Sequence record: OR352941.1
Source of the DNA: Escherichia phage AV111
Length of the DNA stretch: 64,000 bases
Strand: one strand, 5' to 3'
The position numbers and the translations under genes are program-made. Below the pieces are notes generated by a model. That model saw only the letters and a list, made by a program, of their open reading frames with translations. It was not told the origin of the DNA and did no database searches. Shown here piece by piece: positions 1,249-59,605 of this stretch (the stretch's first letter is position 1; each line of letters opens with the position of its first letter).

Positions 1249-1425
1249 TTATGCAACAACCTTTCCAAAACGAGAAGCATCATCTCGAAGAACTGCACGT
1301 GCTCTGCGCATGATCTTCTCAACAGTTTGATTGATACGAGAGTTCGACCCACGCTTGTAGCCAGCGCGTTTAGAATCACCAACTTTCTTTTCAACTGCTT
1401 TCTTTGCTTTAACTTGTTTTGCCAT
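1249..1425 (-). CDS. small basic protein, 58 aa (MAKQVKAKKAVEKKVGDSKRAGYKRGSNSRINQTVEKIMRRARAVLRDDASRFGKVVA)
   Basis: Hand-translated; ATG at 1423-1425 with AAAGAG upstream; Lys/Arg-rich; followed directly by the terminator hairpin; preferred over the overlapping track ORF 1212..1394 in another frame. Confidence 0.4.
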   Translation of the reverse strand: MAKQVKAKKAVEKKVGDSKRAGYKRGSNSRINQTVEKIMRRARAVLRDDASRFGKVVA

Positions 1426-1722
1426 TATAAATTCTCTTTAAATTAAAATGCAGGACTTATTGACATTGCCTGCGCAAGCCCTCAAGGGGAACATAGGTTT
1501 TTGGATATTTAACGACCAGGATAACCATAAACCCGTCATCATACCAACCACGACTTAGACAGATAACCTTTTTCTGACGCGTGATAGTACAAAATACATT
1601 CAAGAGGTACACCGTAAAACTGCCGTGGTCTTAAAACTATAATGATTCGCAAATCATTAATCAGACAGTTCGACGGCTCCTCGATTTTCTAGCCGCACTT
1701 AAGGTAGCGAATCACCTAAAAC

Positions 1723-2095: not shown

Positions 2096-2428
2096 TCACT
2101 TATAAAGACACGGAATAGCTTTATAGTGGCATGTTACGAATTTCTGTTTAATTTCTTTAGGTTGTTTAAGTCCCAAAGCCACAAATGGATGTGGAACATT
2201 TCGAATTTGTCCAACTGGTAGTGGAGTCAAATCACCGACTTCAACAAAACCTTCAGGAACATCAGGACCTACAGAATGAACTACACATAGTTCAGGAACT
2301 TCACCTTGAACACGTTTACCAATCACAAGTCCTGATTCGGTAACTTCTTCATCACCCGCTTGAGCGGGTTCAGAAACCAGAATGACATATTCACCAACAG
2401 CACGAATTGGGAGTTGTACTTCAGACAT
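2096..2428 (-). CDS. 31: gp31 co-chaperonin (GroES-like), 110 aa
   Basis: [34 protein letters not shown]... recognised as T4 gp31. Confidence 0.9.
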
Positions 2429-2794: not shown

Positions 2795-3365
2795 AAAAGT
2801 TTCGGATTTGTTCCCAATTCAGAGAACGAAGATTATTACGAGAGTACTGAATTACTTCAATACCGGCTTGTTTTAGAATGTCTGCCCAATTTTCAGGAGA
2901 TCTGTCATATAATTCTGCGTATACAACCTTTTTAATACCTGACTGTGTAATAGCTTTAGTGCAATCAGGACATGGAGAAAGCGTCGTATACAACGTAGCA
3001 CCTTCAATAGAATTACCTTTACGAGCTGCAAACAAAATTGCATTCAGTTCCGCATGGATTTCATTATTAGCAGACCATGCACTATGAGCGGCCCGATGTT
3101 CTTTAGCCAAAACAAAATTATCTGCCCGTCCAAATGCTGTAGTGCCTTCTTTATGCCCAGCAACGATGACCGGGCTTGGTTTATTCTTCAACCAACCGTT
3201 TTCGGATGCATGTTCACAACAGTTAACACCACCGGCCGGGCTACCGTTATACCCAGTAGAAATAATGCGCCCATCTTTTTCAATGACTGCGCCAACTTTC
3301 CATGAACAACATTTTGATTCTTGAGAAATCAGATATGCAATCTGAAGGTATGTGCTAGCTTTCAT
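2784..3365 (-). CDS. cd: dCMP deaminase, 193 aa
   Basis: Zinc-binding deaminase motifs CEHASE (HAE) and SPCPDC (PCxxC); length matches T4 Cd. Confidence 0.9.
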   Translation of the reverse strand: MKASTYLQIAYLISQESKCCSWKVGAVIEKDGRIISTGYNGSPAGGVNCCEHASENGWLKNKPSPVIVAGHKEGTTAFGRADNFVLAKEHRAAHSAWSANNEIHAELNAILFAARKGNSIEGATLYTTLSPCPDCTKAITQSGIKKVVYAELYDRSPENWADILKQAGIEVIQYSRNNLRSLNWEQIRNFCGE

Positions 3366-13935: not shown

Positions 13936-13980
13936 AACTTTTCCTCTTGTTATGGATTATTTATTAACGGCCTGTGTACT

Positions 13981-17505: not shown

Positions 17506-17898
17506 CTACTTTTTAAAGGTTTTTTGCAAAAGTTCGATGATTTCGTCGACGTTGGTTTCATCTACGATACAATGGATTTTTGTTACACCTAAAGCTATAC
17601 CTTCGTTAGTAGGTTGAGGCTTTACTAAATCTACCTCAGTAAAGTATTTGAACTCGTCAGGATAAATCTCAAAATAAGTTTCAATTCCACCAGAGTCAGA
17701 ACATACAGTACCATCTTCCATAGTTACACTTACTACGTTTGGCGTATCGCTATCATAATCAGGTTCCATTCTGTTTACAACAAAACTAGGCCCGTGGAGT
17801 TCAATCAATTTTAACATCTTAGCATTATTGTGTGGTGCTTCTTGAACAAAGTCGTCTTTAAATAAAGGGTTAATGATATAAGATTTTCCGATTTCCAT
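17506..17898 (-). CDS. hypothetical protein, 130 aa
   Basis: ORF track. Confidence 0.5.
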   Translation of the reverse strand: MEIGKSYIINPLFKDDFVQEAPHNNAKMLKLIELHGPSFVVNRMEPDYDSDTPNVVSVTMEDGTVCSDSGGIETYFEIYPDEFKYFTEVDLVKPQPTNEGIALGVTKIHCIVDETNVDEIIELLQKTFKK

Positions 17899-17928
17899 TT
17901 TGATTTCCTCATGTTGTTGATAGGTCTA

Positions 17929-17966
17929 TACTAACACATCCAGGGAAGAAGTAAACAACCTTTTCA
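17929..17966 (-). promoter_or_regulatory. T4-type early promoter
   Basis: plus-strand gtaaac 17961-17966; taggtctatactaacac 17930-17946. Confidence 0.45.
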
Positions 17967-21294: not shown

Positions 21295-24200
21295 ATGGCC
21301 GACATCAAACGTAAGTTCAGAGCCGAAGACGGTCTGGACGCCGGTGGCGACAAGATTGTTAACGTAGCATTAGCCGACCGTACAGTAGGTACTGATGGCG
21401 TAAACGTTGACTTCCTGGTACAAGAAAACACCGTTCAAGTATATGATTCTACGCGTGGATATAACAAAGGATTTGTTGTTCTTTATGACAACCTTTTATA
21501 TCAAGCAATAAATGATATCGTGTCTCCTTCCGGGGCATTTAACCTTTTACAATGGCGTGCAGTTCGTACTGATGCACAATGGATAACTGTCGCTTCTGGG
21601 ACTTATCAACTTTCTTCAGGTGAATCGATTTCGGTTAACACTGGGGCCGGCAATGATATGGTTTTCACGTTGCCGAATACGCCGGTTGATGGCGATACTG
21701 TTGTTTTGGCTGATATTGGCGGAAGAACCGGGACAGTTAAAGTACAGATTAACGCGTCTGTGCAGAGTATTTTAAACTTTAGAGGTGAACAAGTTCGTAC
21801 AGTTTTAATGACGCGCCCACGTTCACAACTATTGTTTGTGTTTAGTAATCGTTTGTGGCAGATGTATATTACCGATTATGGTAAAGAATCAATCACTGTT
21901 ACACCAGCGTCACCATATCAAGCACAAGCAAATGATTTTATCGTTCGTCGTTTTACTAGTGCAGCACCAATCAACATTACACTTCCACGTAATGCTAACA
22001 ATGGTGATATAATCAGCCTAGTCGATTTAGATAAATTAAACCCACTGTATCATACAATTGTTAAAACATTTGATGATACAACGTCTATTGGTGAAGTCGG
22101 GACTCATATTGCCGAAGGCAGAAATGACTCTGACGCGTTTTTTGTTTTTGATGCTGCAAGTAGTTTATGGCGTATATGGGAAGGCGACCAGAAATCGCGT
22201 CTTCGTATTATCCGTGCGGATTCAAATATTCGTCCAAATGAAGAAGTTCTTATTTTTGGCACAAATAACGCTACAGCCGGAACTATTAATCTTACACTGC
22301 CTACCGGAATTTTGAGTGGTGACACTGTTAAAATTTCAATGAACTACATGCGTAAAGGCCAAACAGTAAAAATTAAAGCTGCCGAAGGTGATACAATTGC
22401 TTCTTCTGTTGCATTGCTTCAGTTCCCTAAACGTTCTGAATATCCACCTGATGCTCAATGGGTCTCTGTTACTGAACTAGAATTCAATGGCACTACTTCA
22501 TATGTTCCTGTATTAGAATTAGCGTATATCGAAGACACCGTTGCTGGTACAAGTTATTGGGTTGTTCAACAAAACGTCCCAACTGTAGAACGTGTCGATG
22601 CATCGAGCAATACAACTCGAGCTCGTTTAGGTGTTATTGCTCTTGCTTCTCAAGCGCAAGCAAATGTTGATTTAGAGAATACTCCAGCTAAAGAAGTGGC
22701 TATTACTCCTGAAACGTTGGCAAATCGTACAGCAACTGAATCTCGACGTGGTATCGCTAAAATTGCTACAACAGCACAAGTTAACCAGAATTCCACAGCA
22801 TCATTTGTGGACGATACTATTGTTACGCCTAAAAAACTAAATGAGCGTACAGCAACTGAAACTCGTCGCGGTCTTGCTGAAATTGCTACTCAGGCCGAAA
22901 CCGATGCTGGTCTTGATGACACAACGATTATTACACCTAAGAAATTGCAGGCACGTCAGGGCTCTGAAACACTATCTGGTATAGTTAAATATGTATCAAC
23001 TACTTCTGCTACTCCTGCTGAAACTCGTGGGGCCGCAGGCACTAACGTTTATAATAAAACCGTAAATAATTTAACTATTTCTCCTAAAGCCCTTGACCAA
23101 TATAAAGCAACTTATGCTCAACAAGGTGCAGTAATTTTAGCTGTTGATAGTGAAGTAATTGCTGGTCAATCCCAAGCAGGTTATTCTCACGCTGTAGTAA
23201 CTCCTGAAACACTACATAAGAAAACTTCTACTGATGGACGTATTGGTTTAATTGAAATTGCTACGCAAGCAGAAACTAATGCTGGGACTGATTATACACG
23301 TGCAGTAACGCCTAAGACGTTAAATGATAGGAAAGCTACGGAAGGATTATCCGGCATAGCCGAACTTGCTACGCAAGTTGAATTTGATACTGGAACTGAT
23401 GATACTCGTATCTCGACTCCACTGAAAATTAAAACTCATTTTGATTCTTCTGACCGTACCAGTGTTAATTCTGATTCCGGACTTATTGAAGAAGGAACCT
23501 TGTGGAACCATTATACTCTTGATATTTCTAAAGCAAATGAAACACAACGCGGTACACTTCGCGTAGCGACCCAGGCAGAATCTAATGCAGGAACTTTAGA
23601 TGATGTTCTTATTACTCCTAAAAAGCTTTTAGGGACTAAGTCCACTGAAACGTCTGAAGGTGTAATTAAGGTTGCTACTCAAGATGAAACTGTAACGGGA
23701 ACTTCCACTAATACTGCTGTATCTCCTAAGAATTTAAAATGGATTGTCCAGTCTGAACCAACATGGGCTGCTACTACAGCAATTCGCGGATTCGTTAAAA
23801 CTTCATCCGGTTCTATTACATTTGTTGGTAATGATACAGTTGGTTCAACACAACCTTTAGAATCATATGAAAAAAATAGCTATGCTATATCTCCATATGA
23901 ATTAAACCGTGTACTTGCTAACTATTTGCCATTAAAAGCAAAAGCTGCTGATAGTAATTTGTTAGATGGTCTAGATTCTCTTCAGTTCATCCGTAGAGAC
24001 ATCGACCAGACGGTTAATGGTTCTTTAAGTCTTACTAAACAGACCAACCTGAGTGCTCCTTTAGTATCTACAAGCACTGCTTCTTTTGGTTCCGAAGCAT
24101 CTGTTACTCGTAGATTAACTCTTAATGACTCTAGCGGTTCCGAAATAATTTTCACTAAAGGAACCCAATCTCTTAGTAATAAAGAGAATTTCGTTGTTAG

Positions 24201-26320: not shown

Positions 26321-26977
26321 ATGGCCGATTTAAAAGCCGGAAGTACAGTTGGTGGTTCCGTCATATGGCATCAAGGCAATTTTCCTTTAATGCCAGCTGG
26401 CGATGACATCCTATATAAAACATTTAAATTATACACCGAATATAACAAGCCAAAAGCGGCTGATAACGATTTCGTATCTAAAGCAAATGGTGGGACATAT
26501 CTCAAAAAGGTAATCTTTAACGAAGGTGTTGCAGTCAAAACAGCAGATGACCAAACGAATGGTATTTTTTCTGGTGGTGGTGACGCCGCGACATTTGACC
26601 AAACAAACATGGATATTGTTTCATGGTATGGTATTGGGTTTAAATCATCTCAAGGTACAGGTGAAAGAACTGTTGTAATTGATACTCGCACCGGTAATAT
26701 AAGTTCTAAAGGCGTTATTGAAGCATCTCAATTCAGAGCCACAACGTTAGCACCTTTAAATAATTACGACCTTACTCGCAAAGATTATGTTGATAGTCAA
26801 ATAAATACAGTTAATGCTAATGCAAACAGTCGTGTACTCCGTTCAGGAGATACGATGACCGGCGCGCTAACCGCCCCAAACTTTTTCTCACAGAATCCTG
26901 CATCTCAACCCTCGCATGTTCCACGATTTGACCAAATTGTTATTAAGGATTCTGTTCAAGATTTCGGCTATTATTAA
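26321..26977 (+). CDS. 36: long tail fibre distal connector gp36, 218 aa
   Basis: Size and synteny. Confidence 0.8.
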   Translation: MADLKAGSTVGGSVIWHQGNFPLMPAGDDILYKTFKLYTEYNKPKAADNDFVSKANGGTYLKKVIFNEGVAVKTADDQTNGIFSGGGDAATFDQTNMDIVSWYGIGFKSSQGTGERTVVIDTRTGNISSKGVIEASQFRATTLAPLNNYDLTRKDYVDSQINTVNANANSRVLRSGDTMTGALTAPNFFSQNPASQPSHVPRFDQIVIKDSVQDFGYY

Positions 26978-31174: not shown

Positions 31175-31828
31175 ATGGAACCAAAAGTAGGATTTTCATT
31201 AACAGACCTACTTTTTGGACTTCTTGATAGAATTTTTAAAGATACTACTTCCGGGAAAGTAGTTTTTTCCCGGGTCCTAGTCGTAATATTATTGTTCTTT
31301 ATGACATTGATTTGGTATAAAGGCGAGTATATTCTAAACTTTTATAAAGAGACTACTTATGCCTCTTATACTGAAATGATTAGACAAGACCAGGACAATA
31401 GATTTAAAATTGCGGCTATCGAGCAGCTCCGAATAGTGCATTCTTCTTCAGGCGCAGACTTCACAGCGGTATATTCTTTTAGACCTACCAACATGAATTA
31501 TTTTGTGGATATGGTGGCTTATGAGGGTAAATTACCGGAAACGGTAGACGCAAAAAATACGGGAGGGTTTCCGATTGACAAAACGTCAGTAGAGTATATG
31601 GCAGGTGTTAACGGGAACTATTTTGAATCCACTACAGAAACTGTGTTCCTTCCTACAAAGAAGAAAACACAATTCACGTATATGTTTTCATGCCCGTTTT
31701 TTAATTTGGATAACGTCTACGCCGGCTCGATATCATTATACTGGTATGATATCAAACCGGATTTAGGATTTCCTAGACTTTCGTCTATGTGTGGTCAGGC
31801 CGGGAGGACATTAGGTCGAACTCGTTAA
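31175..31828 (+). CDS. t: holin T, 217 aa
   Basis: N-terminal TM segment then large periplasmic domain; …FVDMVAYEGKLPE… and …SCPFFNLDNVYAGSISLYWY… match T4 T as recalled. Confidence 0.9.
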   Translation: MEPKVGFSLTDLLFGLLDRIFKDTTSGKVVFSRVLVVILLFFMTLIWYKGEYILNFYKETTYASYTEMIRQDQDNRFKIAAIEQLRIVHSSSGADFTAVYSFRPTNMNYFVDMVAYEGKLPETVDAKNTGGFPIDKTSVEYMAGVNGNYFESTTETVFLPTKKKTQFTYMFSCPFFNLDNVYAGSISLYWYDIKPDLGFPRLSSMCGQAGRTLGRTR

Positions 31829-54862: not shown

Positions 54863-55099
54863 TTAACCACCTACTTCCGTGGGTGTGAACATTGCTTTGT
54901 TCTTAGTACGCCAATCTGCTGCGTCAGTCACCACAGTAGTGTAAGCAGCTTTTTCAGACGGGAAAGTCTGATAATGAGCATCAGCAATTCGGTGCTCATT
55001 TGAGTAAATCTCAAACGGTACAGAAACTTCCATACCTTTAACTTCTTTACCTTCACCAGCAGGATGCGTAAAGGTTTTGATGTTTACATAACCACCCAT
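54863..55099 (-). CDS. soc: small outer capsid protein Soc, 78 aa
   Basis: GYVNIKTF and AHYQTFPSEKAAY match T4 Soc. Confidence 0.85.
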   Translation of the reverse strand: MGGYVNIKTFTHPAGEGKEVKGMEVSVPFEIYSNEHRIADAHYQTFPSEKAAYTTVVTDAADWRTKNKAMFTPTEVGG

Positions 55100-55130: not shown

Positions 55131-55138
55131 TATTTATA
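55131..55138 (-). promoter_or_regulatory. late promoter TATAAATA (minus strand) for soc
   Basis: plus-strand tatttata in the 45-nt gap between gene 56 stop and soc start. Confidence 0.6.
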
Positions 55139-55144
55139 ACTTAA

Positions 55145-55666
55145 TTAGTAACCATTATCCTGACGTTCAAAGTTGTGTTGGTTTTTCAAGTAGTAAAGTT
55201 TAAAGATTTCTTCTGCTGTAAGACCAAGACCCTGGAACATATTCAGAACGAAATGAAGAATATCAATCATCTCAAATTTAATTTCAAGCTGGTCTTCAGG
55301 AGACAGTTCATCGATACGACGATTTCGATATTCAGCATGTTGTGCTTTCCATGGCTTCCATACAGAGCTAGCGGCTTTTTCACCATTGCTCATACCGCCA
55401 AGTGAAGTCAGCAGTTCACGGAATTCGTCATCAATATAATCTTTCTGATTACGCAGCCAATCAACAACATCGCCTGCAGTGGCCAATTCATCAGGATGTT
55501 TGTTATGTTCAGGCTTGTCATTTGCCAGACGAACCTGTAAAGATTTCTGCATATCAAGCATTACCTGCAGTGGGTCTTTATCTTCGTGAATCAGAGCATT
55601 AAAATAAGCTTCTTCTGCTTTATCAACGCCTTCGATCAGTTGACTACATTCGTTGAAATGTGGCAT
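55145..55666 (-). CDS. 56: dCTPase / dUTPase gp56 (dCTP pyrophosphatase), about 173 aa
   Basis: MPHFNECSQLIEGVDKAEEAYF...DPLQVMLDMQ...ELATAGDVVDW... near-identical in outline to T4 gp56; own SD AAGGAAA upstream of ATG 55664-55666. Confidence 0.85.
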   Translation of the reverse strand: MPHFNECSQLIEGVDKAEEAYFNALIHEDKDPLQVMLDMQKSLQVRLANDKPEHNKHPDELATAGDVVDWLRNQKDYIDDEFRELLTSLGGMSNGEKAASSVWKPWKAQHAEYRNRRIDELSPEDQLEIKFEMIDILHFVLNMFQGLGLTAEEIFKLYYLKNQHNFERQDNGY

Positions 55667-56317
55667 GTTATTTTCCTTTCTTATGAAGTTTTCTATCATA
55701 TGTCTATAGCAGATATTAGGATAACCTGCCTTGACAGCTATTTTATTAAATTTTGTGCGCTTAGGTCTATTATTATAAACCCATAATTCATAAAGCGCAT
55801 CATAACTATTCCATATTTCTCCTCGCCTAGGATTTGGTAAACCATATCGAGGCGAATTTTTACCGCTAAATCTTCCTTTTCGGGCTTTACTCATATTAGC
55901 CTTGGCTTCATCGGATATAATTTTACCTTTATGAGCTAGACGCATTTTAGCTTTAGTTTCTTCTGGAGTCTTTTTACCTTTAATCCATGACGGCTTGCCA
56001 TATCTAGGATTATTTTCACCCGAGAAAAGAACAGAGTTTTGGATTTTAAGGGTTTCTATTAATCTACTTGTTAATTTAACACCTTTATTATATCGCATTA
56101 AATTTACAGCATAATGCAATCCTCTCACATCTGGATATATTTTAGTTAATAATCTATGAGCTATAAAATGCTCACGCGCAGTTAACTCAACAAGATTGTT
56201 TTTGCCATCTGCTCCTCCCATACATCTAGGAATTATATGATGGCGTTCTTTATATCCGCAAAGCCGCCGGCATTTAGCTTTTGTAATTAAAGCAGAGTAA
56301 ATTTTTTGGTAATTCAC
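55145..56317 (-). CDS. Mob-like HNH endonuclease ORF (N-terminal about 217 aa) reading in frame, with no stop codon, into gene 56
   Basis: ORF track gives one 390-aa frame; N-terminus MNYQKIYSALITKAKCRRL...HHIIPRCMGGADGKNNLVELTAREHFIAHRLL is the same family as the nrdA-internal and 39-adjacent HNH ORFs. Confidence 0.6.
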   Translation of the reverse strand: MNYQKIYSALITKAKCRRLCGYKERHHIIPRCMGGADGKNNLVELTAREHFIAHRLLTKIYPDVRGLHYAVNLMRYNKGVKLTSRLIETLKIQNSVLFSGENNPRYGKPSWIKGKKTPEETKAKMRLAHKGKIISDEAKANMSKARKGRFSGKNSPRYGLPNPRRGEIWNSYDALYELWVYNNRPKRTKFNKIAVKAGYPNICYRHMIENFIRKENNMPHFNECSQLIEGVDKAEEAYFNALIHEDKDPLQVMLDMQKSLQVRLANDKPEHNKHPDELATAGDVVDWLRNQKDYIDDEFRELLTSLGGMSNGEKAASSVWKPWKAQHAEYRNRRIDELSPEDQLEIKFEMIDILHFVLNMFQGLGLTAEEIFKLYYLKNQHNFERQDNGY

Positions 56318-56405
56318 ATATATCCTTTCAATTCAGTATAAAAGAGTTTAATTCTAACATTAATTTTATAAAGCGTAATAAATAATAGGTAACTAAGGAG
56401 ATATT

Positions 56406-56603
56406 ATGTTTAAACTTCCGTCGTTAATCAACGCTATTAAAGGCAATAAAAAGAAAACTGCTATCGCTGCAATAGTTGTAGGTGGCATTATTTCATGGAA
56501 CTTCGGGATTGCACCATTGTTAGTTGCCCATGGTATTATAGTTCCTTCCGTTCCATTGGATACTGTAGTTGATTTGGCCTTTGCTATTATAGGGCTTGTT
56601 TAA
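56406..56603 (+). CDS. small hydrophobic protein, 65 aa, on the strand opposite to the surrounding early genes
   Basis: Strong SD AAGGAGA 7 nt upstream of ATG; two predicted hydrophobic segments; convergent with gene 61. Confidence 0.45.
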   Translation: MFKLPSLINAIKGNKKKTAIAAIVVGGIISWNFGIAPLLVAHGIIVPSVPLDTVVDLAFAIIGLV

Positions 56604-57622
56604 ATCTTCGAATAACGAGATAATCTCATTTTAGCATGCAACCCACTTGAAATATTCTGTTTCATATATTCTAAAATTTCTTGTGGTGTTGCATTTTCTT
56701 TCATTACCATATCATTCACATCCTTTGATCTCCATGGAGCTAGGTCCCAGAACATGACACGTTCGCCTGCATCAACTAATCGCTTCATGCGAGCTATAGT
56801 ATCCGGATGCCTAGGTTCATTATCCATTACCCATACCCGACGTTCTTTAAATGGTACCACATCTAAATCTATTGAGCCGCCTGTAATAGCGATTGCATTG
56901 GGTATGAATAAACTATCAATAGGGCCTTCCATTACCCAGACGTCTCCTTCCTTAACACGTTCAACACCATAAATTTTTGTTGCAGACTCAAACGCTTTAA
57001 TAGTGATATATTTCTGAGGAGCATCTTTGCGAAGTGCACGTCCTTGAAATGACTCGGCCTTCCCATCTTTATTAAAAATAGGAATCACTAAACGTGGTTC
57101 AGGAATCTCTTTCTTATACGTACCCGGTTGAATCTTGTTGACCAATTTGGGCCATTCTAATGTGAACCATAATCTGTTCCATGATTCTTTAGGAATACAC
57201 CGAGACTTAACATATTTCACAATAGGATGCTCTTCAGGCAACTTGTCTAGACGAGAACAAGACGGCAAAGAATTTATAGTCTTTTTCTCTGGCTCCGGTT
57301 TAGCTTCAGGAACCTTTTCAATCTTTGGTTCCATTCTAGCTTTTTCTTTACGAACTTCCATTAGATATTCGCGATAAAGCTCTTCATCATACTCTTTTAA
57401 GTATCCGGAAATTGTATTGTGGTATTGACAGTTATAGCAATGCACATTACCAGGAGTACCGCCATAATACCATCCGCGAGCTTTCATTGCATCTGTCTGG
57501 GAGTCGCCACAAACTGGACATCGAAATGTTAATTTAAATGTGCTTGAATTATTGATTTGTCTAAAACGAGGTAGGTGAGAAAACGCACGATAAGCAAATT
57601 CATTATCTATCCATTCAGCCAT
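56600..57622 (-). CDS. 61: DNA primase gp61, 340 aa
   Basis: N-terminal zinc ribbon (CPVCGDS ... CYNCQYH) and TOPRIM region matching T4 gp61. Confidence 0.9.
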   Translation of the reverse strand: MAEWIDNEFAYRAFSHLPRFRQINNSSTFKLTFRCPVCGDSQTDAMKARGWYYGGTPGNVHCYNCQYHNTISGYLKEYDEELYREYLMEVRKEKARMEPKIEKVPEAKPEPEKKTINSLPSCSRLDKLPEEHPIVKYVKSRCIPKESWNRLWFTLEWPKLVNKIQPGTYKKEIPEPRLVIPIFNKDGKAESFQGRALRKDAPQKYITIKAFESATKIYGVERVKEGDVWVMEGPIDSLFIPNAIAITGGSIDLDVVPFKERRVWVMDNEPRHPDTIARMKRLVDAGERVMFWDLAPWRSKDVNDMVMKENATPQEILEYMKQNISSGLHAKMRLSRYSKI

Positions 57623-58347: not shown

Positions 58348-59007
58348 TTAACCTCGATTCATAAATGCATTAAATATTTGGTCATCAACAGAAATTTCTA
58401 ATTCAACTTCAATTGCTTCAGCCTTTTCTTCAGGTGGTAATTCGTATCCACACACTACAATTTTTTCATCGATATCAAAATATACAGAAGCAATACGATT
58501 AATGTTACTTTCAGTTAAGTCTAAATCAACATCAACATCTTTTTGACCTACGCTTAAAGGATAACTAATACGAGTTATTTTATTATCTTTAACAAAGAGT
58601 CCACCAACATACTCTGTGCTACGTTTGAAGTTTACACGTTTCCGAATTGAAAGATATGATACATCTTTACCGTGAGCTCGGCTCATAGGACATAATGAAT
58701 AGCTAGAATAAGAGATGTCAAATCCTACACCTTCAATATGAGCCAACGTGTCATGATTAAACCAATTATAATCATATGCCAAATCCATTATATTGTAATA
58801 TGTGAAAGGCACAGGATTAACATCATATGTTGTACCTTTAAAATCTGCCCAGGCAACGATTTCGTTATCTTTAACAATTACAAAAATTACACCAATATGG
58901 TATCCGTTATTATTTTCATTCGGCGTTATATTATAACATTGTGCATTAGGAAATTTACCATATTTAAATGGCGCGTTTTTGTGCATATAATAAATCATAT
59001 TATTCAC
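58348..59007 (-). CDS. hypothetical protein, 219 aa (61.2 position)
   Basis: ORF track. Confidence 0.5.
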   Translation of the reverse strand: MNNMIYYMHKNAPFKYGKFPNAQCYNITPNENNNGYHIGVIFVIVKDNEIVAWADFKGTTYDVNPVPFTYYNIMDLAYDYNWFNHDTLAHIEGVGFDISYSSYSLCPMSRAHGKDVSYLSIRKRVNFKRSTEYVGGLFVKDNKITRISYPLSVGQKDVDVDLDLTESNINRIASVYFDIDEKIVVCGYELPPEEKAEAIEVELEISVDDQIFNAFMNRG

Positions 59008-59293
59008 CTGTGATTTCGGTTACGATATCTTTGTTATCGAAATTAGGGTCACAATACAAAACATAGTTGTACTGCATGATACCGCCAGACTTAAGTTGTT
59101 CAACAACTTTATTAACCATATTAGGACGGTCTCGTTTAGTGATGTTCATGATATCAGAGAAGATTTGTTGTTCAACATCTTCTTGATTTGCAGTCATTGA
59201 CCACTCACAGAGGTCTTTATCATAACCTGCCGTAACTGGAGCCGGTGCACATGATACTGCAAGTAAGATTGCTGCCAATGATAACTTTTTCAT
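59000..59293 (-). CDS. sp: probable Spackle (periplasmic lysozyme inhibitor / superinfection exclusion), 97 aa
   Basis: Cleavable signal peptide MKKLSLAAILLAVSCAPA; length and position match T4 sp (61.3). Confidence 0.55.
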   Translation of the reverse strand: MKKLSLAAILLAVSCAPAPVTAGYDKDLCEWSMTANQEDVEQQIFSDIMNITKRDRPNMVNKVVEQLKSGGIMQYNYVLYCDPNFDNKDIVTEITGE

Positions 59294-59356: not shown

Positions 59357-59605
59357 TTATTCTTTTTCGCGAATAATAATTACTTGTTGAGGCTGCTGAG
59401 CAGATTTCTTTTCGGCGACGATAGACCAAATTAAAGTTCCAATCCAACCAATCATCGTCCAGTTAAAGAGTAAAGATACAAAGAAGATTGCTGTTGTGCT
59501 TTTTGTGCCACGAATAAGTGCGATTACCCAAGGCAACATGTAAATGATGATTGAACCAATACCTGCGATTAAAACTGCTACTGAACTAGCTACGAATAAT
59601 TCCAT
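59357..59605 (-). CDS. small two-TM membrane protein, 82 aa; resembles the superinfection-immunity (Imm) family
   Basis: Two hydrophobic helices; FNWTMIGWIGTLIW resembles the N..GW...W signature I associate with Imm-type proteins. Confidence 0.4.
   Translation of the reverse strand: MELFVASSVAVLIAGIGSIIIYMLPWVIALIRGTKSTTAIFFVSLLFNWTMIGWIGTLIWSIVAEKKSAQQPQQVIIIREKE

Follow-up and report, generated by a model that had tools for sequence, protein, structure and literature searches.

A plus-strand ORF convergent with gene 61

We analyzed a 64,000-nucleotide stretch of the genome of Escherichia phage AV111 (sequence record OR352941.1), referred to here as the window, and focused on a small open reading frame (ORF) at 56406..56603 on the plus strand. 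The window belongs to a Mosigvirus, a JS09-like relative of T4, and the 2.6 kb surrounding the ORF are 98% identical to Shigella phage SSE1. The ATG start, the 65 codons, and the TAA stop were all confirmed in the window. This coding sequence specifies a 65-residue protein, MFKLPSLINAIKGNKKKTAIAAIVVGGIISWNFGIAPLLVAHGIIVPSVPLDTVVDLAFAIIGLV, which belongs to PHROG 2024. The protein is strongly hydrophobic, with a grand average of hydropathy (GRAVY) of 1.24, five Lys/Arg residues, and two Asp/Glu residues; the charges are five lysines towards the N terminus and two aspartates towards the C terminus. A Shine-Dalgarno sequence, AAGGAGA, is located at 56395..56401 on the same strand. The initial annotation, made from the sequence alone, had reported a 65-residue hydrophobic plus-strand ORF with a strong Shine-Dalgarno sequence, and this is what was observed. 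The spacing, given there as 7 nt, is in fact 4 nt from the end of the heptamer to the ATG (5 nt when counted from GGAG), which is still functional.

The ORF is convergent with the primase gene 61 (56600..57622, minus strand). Reading of the sequence revealed that the two stop codons overlap by 4 nt (TTAA, 56600..56603). The same 4-nt overlap with gene 61 is present in T4, CIP9, and Melville, and in TH41 it is formed by a paralogue of the ORF. On the other side, the HNH-56 ORF (55145..56317, minus strand) is divergent and starts 88 nt to the left. The placement on the opposite strand, convergent with gene 61 and beside HNH-56, therefore agrees with the earlier description, as does the remark that an opposite-strand gene is unusual here. 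Indeed, this is the only convincing plus-strand gene of the window outside the late tail fiber/holin cluster. Its strand is opposite to that of all the early genes around it and is shared with the late genes 34 to 38 and t. No paralogue of the ORF was found elsewhere in the window by a search with the hidden Markov model (HMM) of the family.

The ORF encodes a conserved protein under purifying selection

From end to end, the product of the ORF matched the HMM of PHROG 2024, a family of unknown function (E = 1.9e-27; 95.8 bits; residues 1 to 65 against positions 1 to 65 of the 65-position profile). We noted no difference between the two: length, synteny (convergent on gene 61), and a W-N…P…G…P motif are shared, and the ORF is a member of this family. 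Distant members and a tandem paralogue, both described below, also match PHROG 2024, with E values from 3e-13 to 6e-28. A protein identical to that of the ORF has been deposited as a hypothetical protein (AFU20422.1 from phage HX01 and QBZ71022.1 from Shigella phage SSE1) and is found on 217 contigs; 100% identical copies occur in other Mosigviruses. A tblastn search identified 692 phage records carrying the ORF, 685 of which had at least 80% of the protein covered and were counted as intact. Approximately 150 of the 692 are Mosigvirus records at an identity of at least 95%, and 533 fall below 60% identity. The matches sampled from this latter group came from Tequatrovirus (approximately 54%, T4 included) and Gaprivervirus (45 to 49%).

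In comparisons between groups, the proportion of differences at synonymous sites (pS) was 0.7 to 0.8, i.e., saturated, against 0.16 to 0.38 at nonsynonymous sites (pN). The ratio of nonsynonymous to synonymous substitution rates (dN/dS) was 0.09 to 0.34 where it could be computed. Differences by codon position followed the order 3 > 1 > 2, with counts of 40, 31, and 12, respectively, between the window and T4. The saturation of synonymous sites, together with a dN/dS of approximately 0.1 to 0.3, indicates that the ORF codes for a protein. In addition, a GGAG or GGAGG Shine-Dalgarno sequence was found 4 to 8 nt before the start at every family locus examined. By these comparative measures the ORF is shown to be a protein-coding gene under purifying selection, far beyond what is expected of a chance ORF. 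The product evolves faster than its neighbors: between the window and T4 its identity is 54%, compared with 74% for gp61 and 72.5% for gp56, and is close to the 51% of Soc.

Single-base frameshifts were seen in the ORF of two records, T4_ev240 (LR597657; L024, approximately 1411..1470) and ERS-1 (PP337211; L010). The T4_ev240 frameshift, which gives a truncated match, is located in an A-run (AAGAAACG to AAAAACG), and ERS-1, which gives a match in two pieces, is an UNVERIFIED record. In both cases a sequencing error is as likely as a true loss, and the two records therefore carry no evidence on dispensability.

The ORF is independent of the adjacent HNH insertion

Alignment to the HNH-less Mosigvirus WFL6982 placed the limits of the insertion beside the ORF at 55681..56322 (642 nt). 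The flanks of the insertion, including the 83 nt separating it from the ORF, are 96 to 98% identical to WFL6982. The window and HNH-less Mosigviruses, among them WFL6982 and a20, are 98% identical over the ORF and the 83 nt upstream of it. These two phages have an empty site, and in both the ORF is found at the corresponding position, with genes 56 and 61 as its immediate neighbors. The region matched 644 records, of which only 6 cover at least 80% of the query and hence are able to hold the 642-nt insertion. By these alignments the ORF is shown to be independent of the adjacent HNH insertion, and the proposal that it was cargo of the endonuclease is refuted.

The HNH/NUMOD3 homing endonuclease ORF lacks its own stop codon and runs in frame into gene 56 (dCTPase), giving a 390-amino-acid ORF at 55145..56317 on the minus strand. 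The insertion begins immediately after the original gene 56 Shine-Dalgarno sequence (…TTGAAAGGA|tatatGTG…), and its end recreates a similar Shine-Dalgarno sequence ahead of the gene 56 ATG (…GAAAGGAAAATAACATG), so that separate synthesis of gp56 is probably still possible. Both insertion junctions align to one 7-nt stretch of the empty site.

The family occupies a fixed position beside gene 61

At every locus examined (the window, SSE1, WFL6982, T4, CJ20, TH41, metagenomic T4-like contigs, JD18, CIP9, JS98, and Melville), a family member was found on the strand opposite to the early genes, convergent on the 3' end of gene 61 or located one ORF before it. An extra ORF of this kind, between the family member and gene 61, is present in L020 and L021. 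The left neighbor is dam in T4 and gene 56 or unrelated small ORFs in other lineages. Since the left neighbors differ, the interval between genes 56 and 61 is a variable slot in which the small ORF is the constant element at the gene 61 end.

A profile search of 1.84 billion cluster representatives returned 8 clusters only, all of them small hypothetical proteins of T4-like phages. Four of these clusters are distant (22 to 32% identity), and each lies on T4-like contigs, on the anti-early strand and convergent on gene 61 where that gene was recognizable. A word-indexed search with a broadened profile likewise gave only hypothetical phage proteins of 33 to 74 amino acids with no Pfam domain. 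When the distant members were used as tblastn queries, matches were obtained in Klebsiella phage JD18 (Jiaodavirus), Enterobacter phage CIP9 (Kanagawavirus), Escherichia phage JS98 (Dhakavirus), and Salmonella phage Melville (Gelderlandvirus), as well as in Citrobacter, Raoultella, Edwardsiella, and Kosakonia phages. The family thus extends over Mosigvirus, Tequatrovirus, Gaprivervirus, and at least four further genera of Tevenvirinae, at least seven in all, and on the order of a thousand T4-like phages carry a member beside gene 61.

Tandem paralogues, here called the A and B types, are present in Gaprivervirus, in ESCO47, and in a metagenomic T4-like phage (L016); both types belong to PHROG 2024 (E = 6e-28 for the B type). 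The Gaprivervirus pair has the order A then B (L007, 2001..2198 and 2207..2407), and the L016 pair has the order B then A (2805..3008 and 3001..3198). In ESCO47 the two types are consecutively numbered genes, and in JS98 the B type is the sole copy. A single upstream late promoter box appears to serve each pair, suggesting that the two genes form a late operon and that their products may form a hetero-oligomer.

In several lineages, the space between the small ORF and gene 61 is taken up exactly by a short, GC-rich hairpin with a T-run after it and, on the other strand, an A-run ahead of it. This element is located at approximately 3196..3225 in L014, 3199..3230 in L016, 5205..5230 in L018, 5202..5232 in L020, and 1693..1720 in L025; the lineages with such a hairpin and T-run are L014, L016, L018, L020, and JD18. 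The element resembles a bidirectional terminator. In the window and T4, the overlap of the ORF with gene 61 leaves no space for such a hairpin.

Polarity and a gp55-type box point to late transcription

In T4, early and middle transcripts are all of one polarity, and only late transcripts are found in either polarity (PMC2988020). The late promoters consist of the 8-bp TATAAATA box alone, and the variant with A at -13 is the commonest natural one, accounting for 9 of the 50 T4 late promoters listed (PMC2988020). In the window, a match to this A(-13) variant of the gp55 box, AATAAATA, was identified at 56377..56384 on the plus strand, 21 nt before the ATG of the ORF. The ORF therefore shows two marks of a T4-type late gene, a TATAAATA-type box with no -35 element and a polarity restricted to late transcripts.

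In 13 of 15 transcription units of the family, a box of the form NATAAATA ([ACGT]ATAAATA) precedes the first ORF by 12 to 41 nt, amid surrounding sequence that has diverged. The box is AATAAATA in Mosigvirus, T4_ev240, L011, and JS98; GATAAATA in T4, L018, and L020; and CATAAATA in Gaprivervirus, L016, L022, L023, and JD18. CIP9 has the perfect consensus, TATAAATA. The last case led us to drop the idea that the box never has T at -13, which had arisen because the first 10 lineages have A, C, or G at this position.

The frequency of the box in the window was compared with that in shuffled sequences. AATAAATA occurs at 3 sites (13958..13965 on the minus strand and 26800..26807 and 56377..56384 on the plus strand), against 9.6 ± 3.4 expected from shuffles. 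Such a shortage would fit counterselection of spurious late promoters. For the consensus TATAAATA there is no shortage (7 sites, with 6.8 expected). As an internal control, all three plus-strand TATAAATA sites (21257, 26287, and 31149) lie 26 to 38 nt before late genes (starting at 21295, 26321, and 31175), namely, tail fiber genes and the holin gene t. Matches to sigma-70-like plus-strand promoters in 56000..57000 were at chance level only, and no terminators were found in this interval.

A precedent for a T4-type late gene amid early genes is soc (54863..55099, minus strand), which has its own TATAAATA box at 55131..55138. Like the ORF, soc is short and has a late box approximately 20 to 30 nt before its ATG and a strong Shine-Dalgarno sequence. 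The two differ in that soc is on the early strand and specifies a capsid decoration protein, whereas the ORF is on the opposite strand, has the A(-13) variant of the box, and specifies a membrane protein.

Given the anti-early polarity and the conserved late box, the likeliest reading is that the ORF is a gp55-dependent late gene and not an early exclusion or toxin-like factor. Both lines of evidence argue well for late transcription from the putative gp55-type promoter AATAAATA at 56377..56384, with translation from the strong Shine-Dalgarno sequence.

The product is a predicted single-pass membrane microprotein

An AlphaFold2 model of the product was built from a 17-sequence alignment and had a mean predicted local distance difference test score (pLDDT) of 80, with values of 88 to 90 over residues 21 to 50. 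The model contains helices at residues 3 to 13, 15 to 41, and 51 to 61. The initial annotation had described a two-helix membrane protein; the membrane assignment held, and the two helices became one long hydrophobic helix (15 to 41) plus two short amphipathic ones (3 to 13 and 51 to 61). From the model and the charges, codons 3 to 17 (56412..56456, plus strand) are predicted to form a cytoplasmic segment composed of an N-terminal amphipathic helix and a basic cluster (KGNKKK). Hydropathy and the model place a transmembrane helix at codons 19 to 41 (56460..56528, plus strand), which includes W31, N32, and P37. Codons 42 to 65 (56529..56600, plus strand) comprise an HG turn, a proline linker, and a short acidic/hydrophobic amphipathic helix, and the model and charges suggest that this segment is periplasmic or interfacial.

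Across eight lineages, the net charge of the N-terminal flank of the predicted transmembrane helix ranged from +1 to +7 and that of the C-terminal flank from -2 to 0. This positive-inside bias argues for a single-pass protein with a cytoplasmic N terminus. The C-terminal hydrophobic stretch is broken by P47, P50, D52, and D56 and, in distant members, by E, K, H, Q, or R. Because this segment is short and contains proline and charged residues, it is unlikely to form a second membrane span. Taken with the model, these features argue well for a single-pass inner membrane microprotein with its N terminus inside and its C-terminal tail on the periplasmic face.

Inspection of the alignments revealed that in close family members L4, L7, A10, and K12 are invariant and K3, I11, G13, and K16 are nearly so. 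In 12 divergent sequences W31 and P37 are invariant, and N32, G43, and P47 are at least 90% conserved. A conserved Trp-Asn pair in the middle of the membrane suggests helix-helix association. The invariant mid-helix Trp-Asn and the Pro, Gly, and Pro that follow it may therefore serve in helix-helix packing within the membrane, and the partner could be the protein itself, the tandem paralogue where present, or another single-pass membrane protein of the phage or host.

The product can be likened to small bacterial membrane proteins of the AcrZ, MgrB, MgtS, and CydX type, which are single-pass proteins of approximately 30 to 70 amino acids with conserved residues inside the membrane helix, a feature that hints at action through binding to a different membrane protein. 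This is a functional analogy and not homology, as no sequence relationship between them and the ORF product was found. The sole match in the direction of bacterial microproteins, that of a distant member to AaeX, was at chance level (E = 0.013; 15.8 bits against a cutoff of 82).

Possible functions and alternative explanations

As a whole, these results are best explained if the ORF is a resident gene that enterobacterial T4-like phages inherit vertically, a member of PHROG 2024, whose product is a late inner membrane microprotein acting on the envelope towards the end of infection; we regard this explanation as probable. Our best guess is that the process affected would be the late state of the envelope, i.e., lysis timing, lysis inhibition, or membrane-associated assembly. 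The parts of this explanation that concern structure and timing are held with much higher confidence than the functional part, modulation of the envelope late in infection through binding within the membrane, which we propose with considerable doubt. A more specific version is that the family represents an overlooked form of late T4-type envelope control, in which the invariant Trp-Asn…Pro helix would bind a phage or host protein (such as holin T or an inner membrane protein of the host) at that protein's only transmembrane helix, thereby tuning lysis timing or lysis inhibition or blocking a membrane-acting abortive infection effector. This version is, in our estimation, unlikely.

Several points weigh against the favored explanation. 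The promoter box is a 7- to 8-mer in AT-rich DNA, and two of the 15 transcription units have imperfect boxes (TATTAATA in L014 and TATTAAATA in Melville). The topology is based on hydropathy, charge bias, and an AlphaFold2 monomer model. Profile searches returned hypothetical phage proteins only, and therefore no function can be transferred by homology. Nothing links the protein to lysis, as the ORF is far from the holin gene t (31175..31828) and its product has no holin or antiholin homology. Finally, a literature survey found no transcript, ribosome footprint, proteomic, or genetic data for the ORF in any phage; it covered T4 ribosome profiling (Ribo-seq), unannotated T4 ORFs, late antisense transcripts, small membrane proteins of Tevenvirinae, and CRISPRi-ART/HIDEN-SEQ, and the locus is unmentioned in the T4 transposon sequencing preprint (HIDEN-SEQ; bioRxiv 10.1101/2025.11.20.689424). 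Database searches were similarly uninformative. The ORF protein had no matches in Pfam, NCBIfam, or PADLOC (0 for PADLOC), a sequence profile search of the PDB gave chance-level matches only (best E = 1.3), and a fold search of BFVD recovered family members only.

Among the alternatives, the idea that the ORF came as cargo with the neighboring Mob-type HNH homing endonuclease and has an exclusion or toxin-like activity draws on its position, divergent from the HNH-56 ORF and 88 nt away, and on the small size and hydrophobicity that its product shares with some exclusion or toxin proteins. The end of the insertion at 56322, the 98% identity of the ORF and its upstream region in HNH-less relatives, and the variety of left neighbors in T4 and other genera all contradict it, as does the finding that 692 records have the ORF yet just 6 of 644 can hold the insertion. 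Exclusion or toxin activity is unsupported for its own part, with no match in PADLOC, Pfam, or NCBIfam and with a polarity and box that indicate late expression; the known T4-type exclusion genes imm (59357..59605) and sp (59000..59293) are separate genes of the window on the early strand. We consider this alternative hardly credible. It is also possible to suppose that the late plus-strand RNA is itself what matters, running antisense into gene 61 and shutting down primase synthesis late, with the ORF being secondary. In the window and T4 the ORF overlaps the gene 61 stop and no terminator-like hairpin follows it, so late transcription would run antisense into gene 61. The purifying selection on the amino acid sequence argues otherwise, and in several lineages read-through would be stopped by the hairpin and T-run that separate the ORF from gene 61. 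Because such hairpins occur in several genera, antisense action is not the conserved function, although it may be a side effect in some genera; as an explanation of the ORF it is highly improbable.

Two further alternatives concern the protein. The N-terminal 41 residues could be a long Sec signal peptide, cleaved after A41 to free a hydrophobic acidic peptide of 24 residues, HGIIVPSVPLDTVVDLAFAIIGLV, to the periplasm or the outer face of the inner membrane. The layout resembles the n, h, and c regions of a signal peptide, with a basic cluster, a hydrophobic stretch, an invariant proline at -5, and small residues at -3 and -1; close members have L/A-x-A and most distant ones A-x-[A/T/S], followed by the near-invariant G43, so that the pattern P37-x-[L/A]-x-[A/T/S]41 and then x-G43 is conserved. 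However, the hydrophobic stretch of 18 to 23 residues exceeds typical cleaved h regions and fits signal anchors, and it contains W31 and N32, whose invariance across the family is unexpected in a disposable signal peptide. The extreme N terminus also is conserved among close members, and P0080 has Phe at -1. In view of the length of the hydrophobic stretch and the invariant residues within it, we rated cleavage lower than a retained membrane helix and judge it unlikely. A role as a holin, a pinholin-like protein, or another hole-forming lysis protein is suggested by the labels "Holin" (UniProt A0A482MZV5, phage OE5505) and "putative holin" (Klebsiella phage KP1079), which look like automatic guesses from size and hydrophobicity. 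Like holins and antiholins (T and RI of T4, classes I to III, and pinholins), the product is small, membrane inserted, and probably expressed late; in the Mosigvirus and T4 versions, Gly, Ala, Ser, and Thr are abundant in the transmembrane helix, and one distant member weakly matches a holin PHROG (E = 0.012). The product nevertheless lacks sequence homology to these proteins and has no significant match to a holin family of Pfam, PHROGs, or NCBIfam. The gene is located between genes 56 and 61, away from any lysis cassette, and the window has a T-type holin of 217 amino acids at 31175..31828. There is one convincing span, and the C terminus is hydrophobic (…AFAIIGLV; net charge, -2) where a holin would have a charged cytoplasmic tail. 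Lysis of the T4 type is already explained by t, e, rI, rIII, and the spanins. A hole-forming role therefore seems very unlikely, and we rejected the holin labels for want of any supporting feature.

Annotation status and significance

The canonical T4 record, AF158101, leaves the orthologue at 17738..17938 (plus strand) unannotated in the gap between dam and gene 61 (L003, 3239..3439), and the JS98 record, NC_010105, likewise leaves the ORF unannotated in the gap between genes 56 and 61 (L027, 1474..1674). The exact T4 protein sequence is without an NCBI accession; the ORF is included in newer automatic annotations, such as that of a T4 mutant (OZ209057). The T4 orthologue, 54% identical to the ORF of the window, resembles it in strand, in the 4-nt stop overlap with gene 61, and in the Shine-Dalgarno sequence, and its GATAAATA box is 21 nt before the ATG, the same distance as in the window. 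The two differ in the left neighbor, which is dam in T4 and HNH-56 in the window. Elsewhere, family members bear names that are inconsistent and evidently either wrong or without support, namely, "Holin," "putative holin," "DNA packaging ATPase," and "dCTP pyrophosphatase"; the sources of such names are UniProt A0A482MZV5 (OE5505), KP1079 (OM630219), SAKp28, vB_YenM_P8, and SEA1.

The ORF thus belongs to an already annotated family of hypothetical proteins of T4-like phages and is probably late and membrane embedded. A false lead is removed, in that the ORF is unrelated to the HNH insertion, and the gene is reassigned from a possible early exclusion factor or toxin to a probable late membrane microprotein. 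For specialists, it is noteworthy that the T4 (AF158101) and JS98 records omit a conserved gene that is subject to purifying selection and keeps its position in at least seven genera of Tevenvirinae. Were late envelope control its role, a conserved functional gene would be absent from the canonical T4 annotation (AF158101). Should its deletion give a phenotype, the gene would be a new player in late T4 biology, a system deemed very thoroughly mapped.

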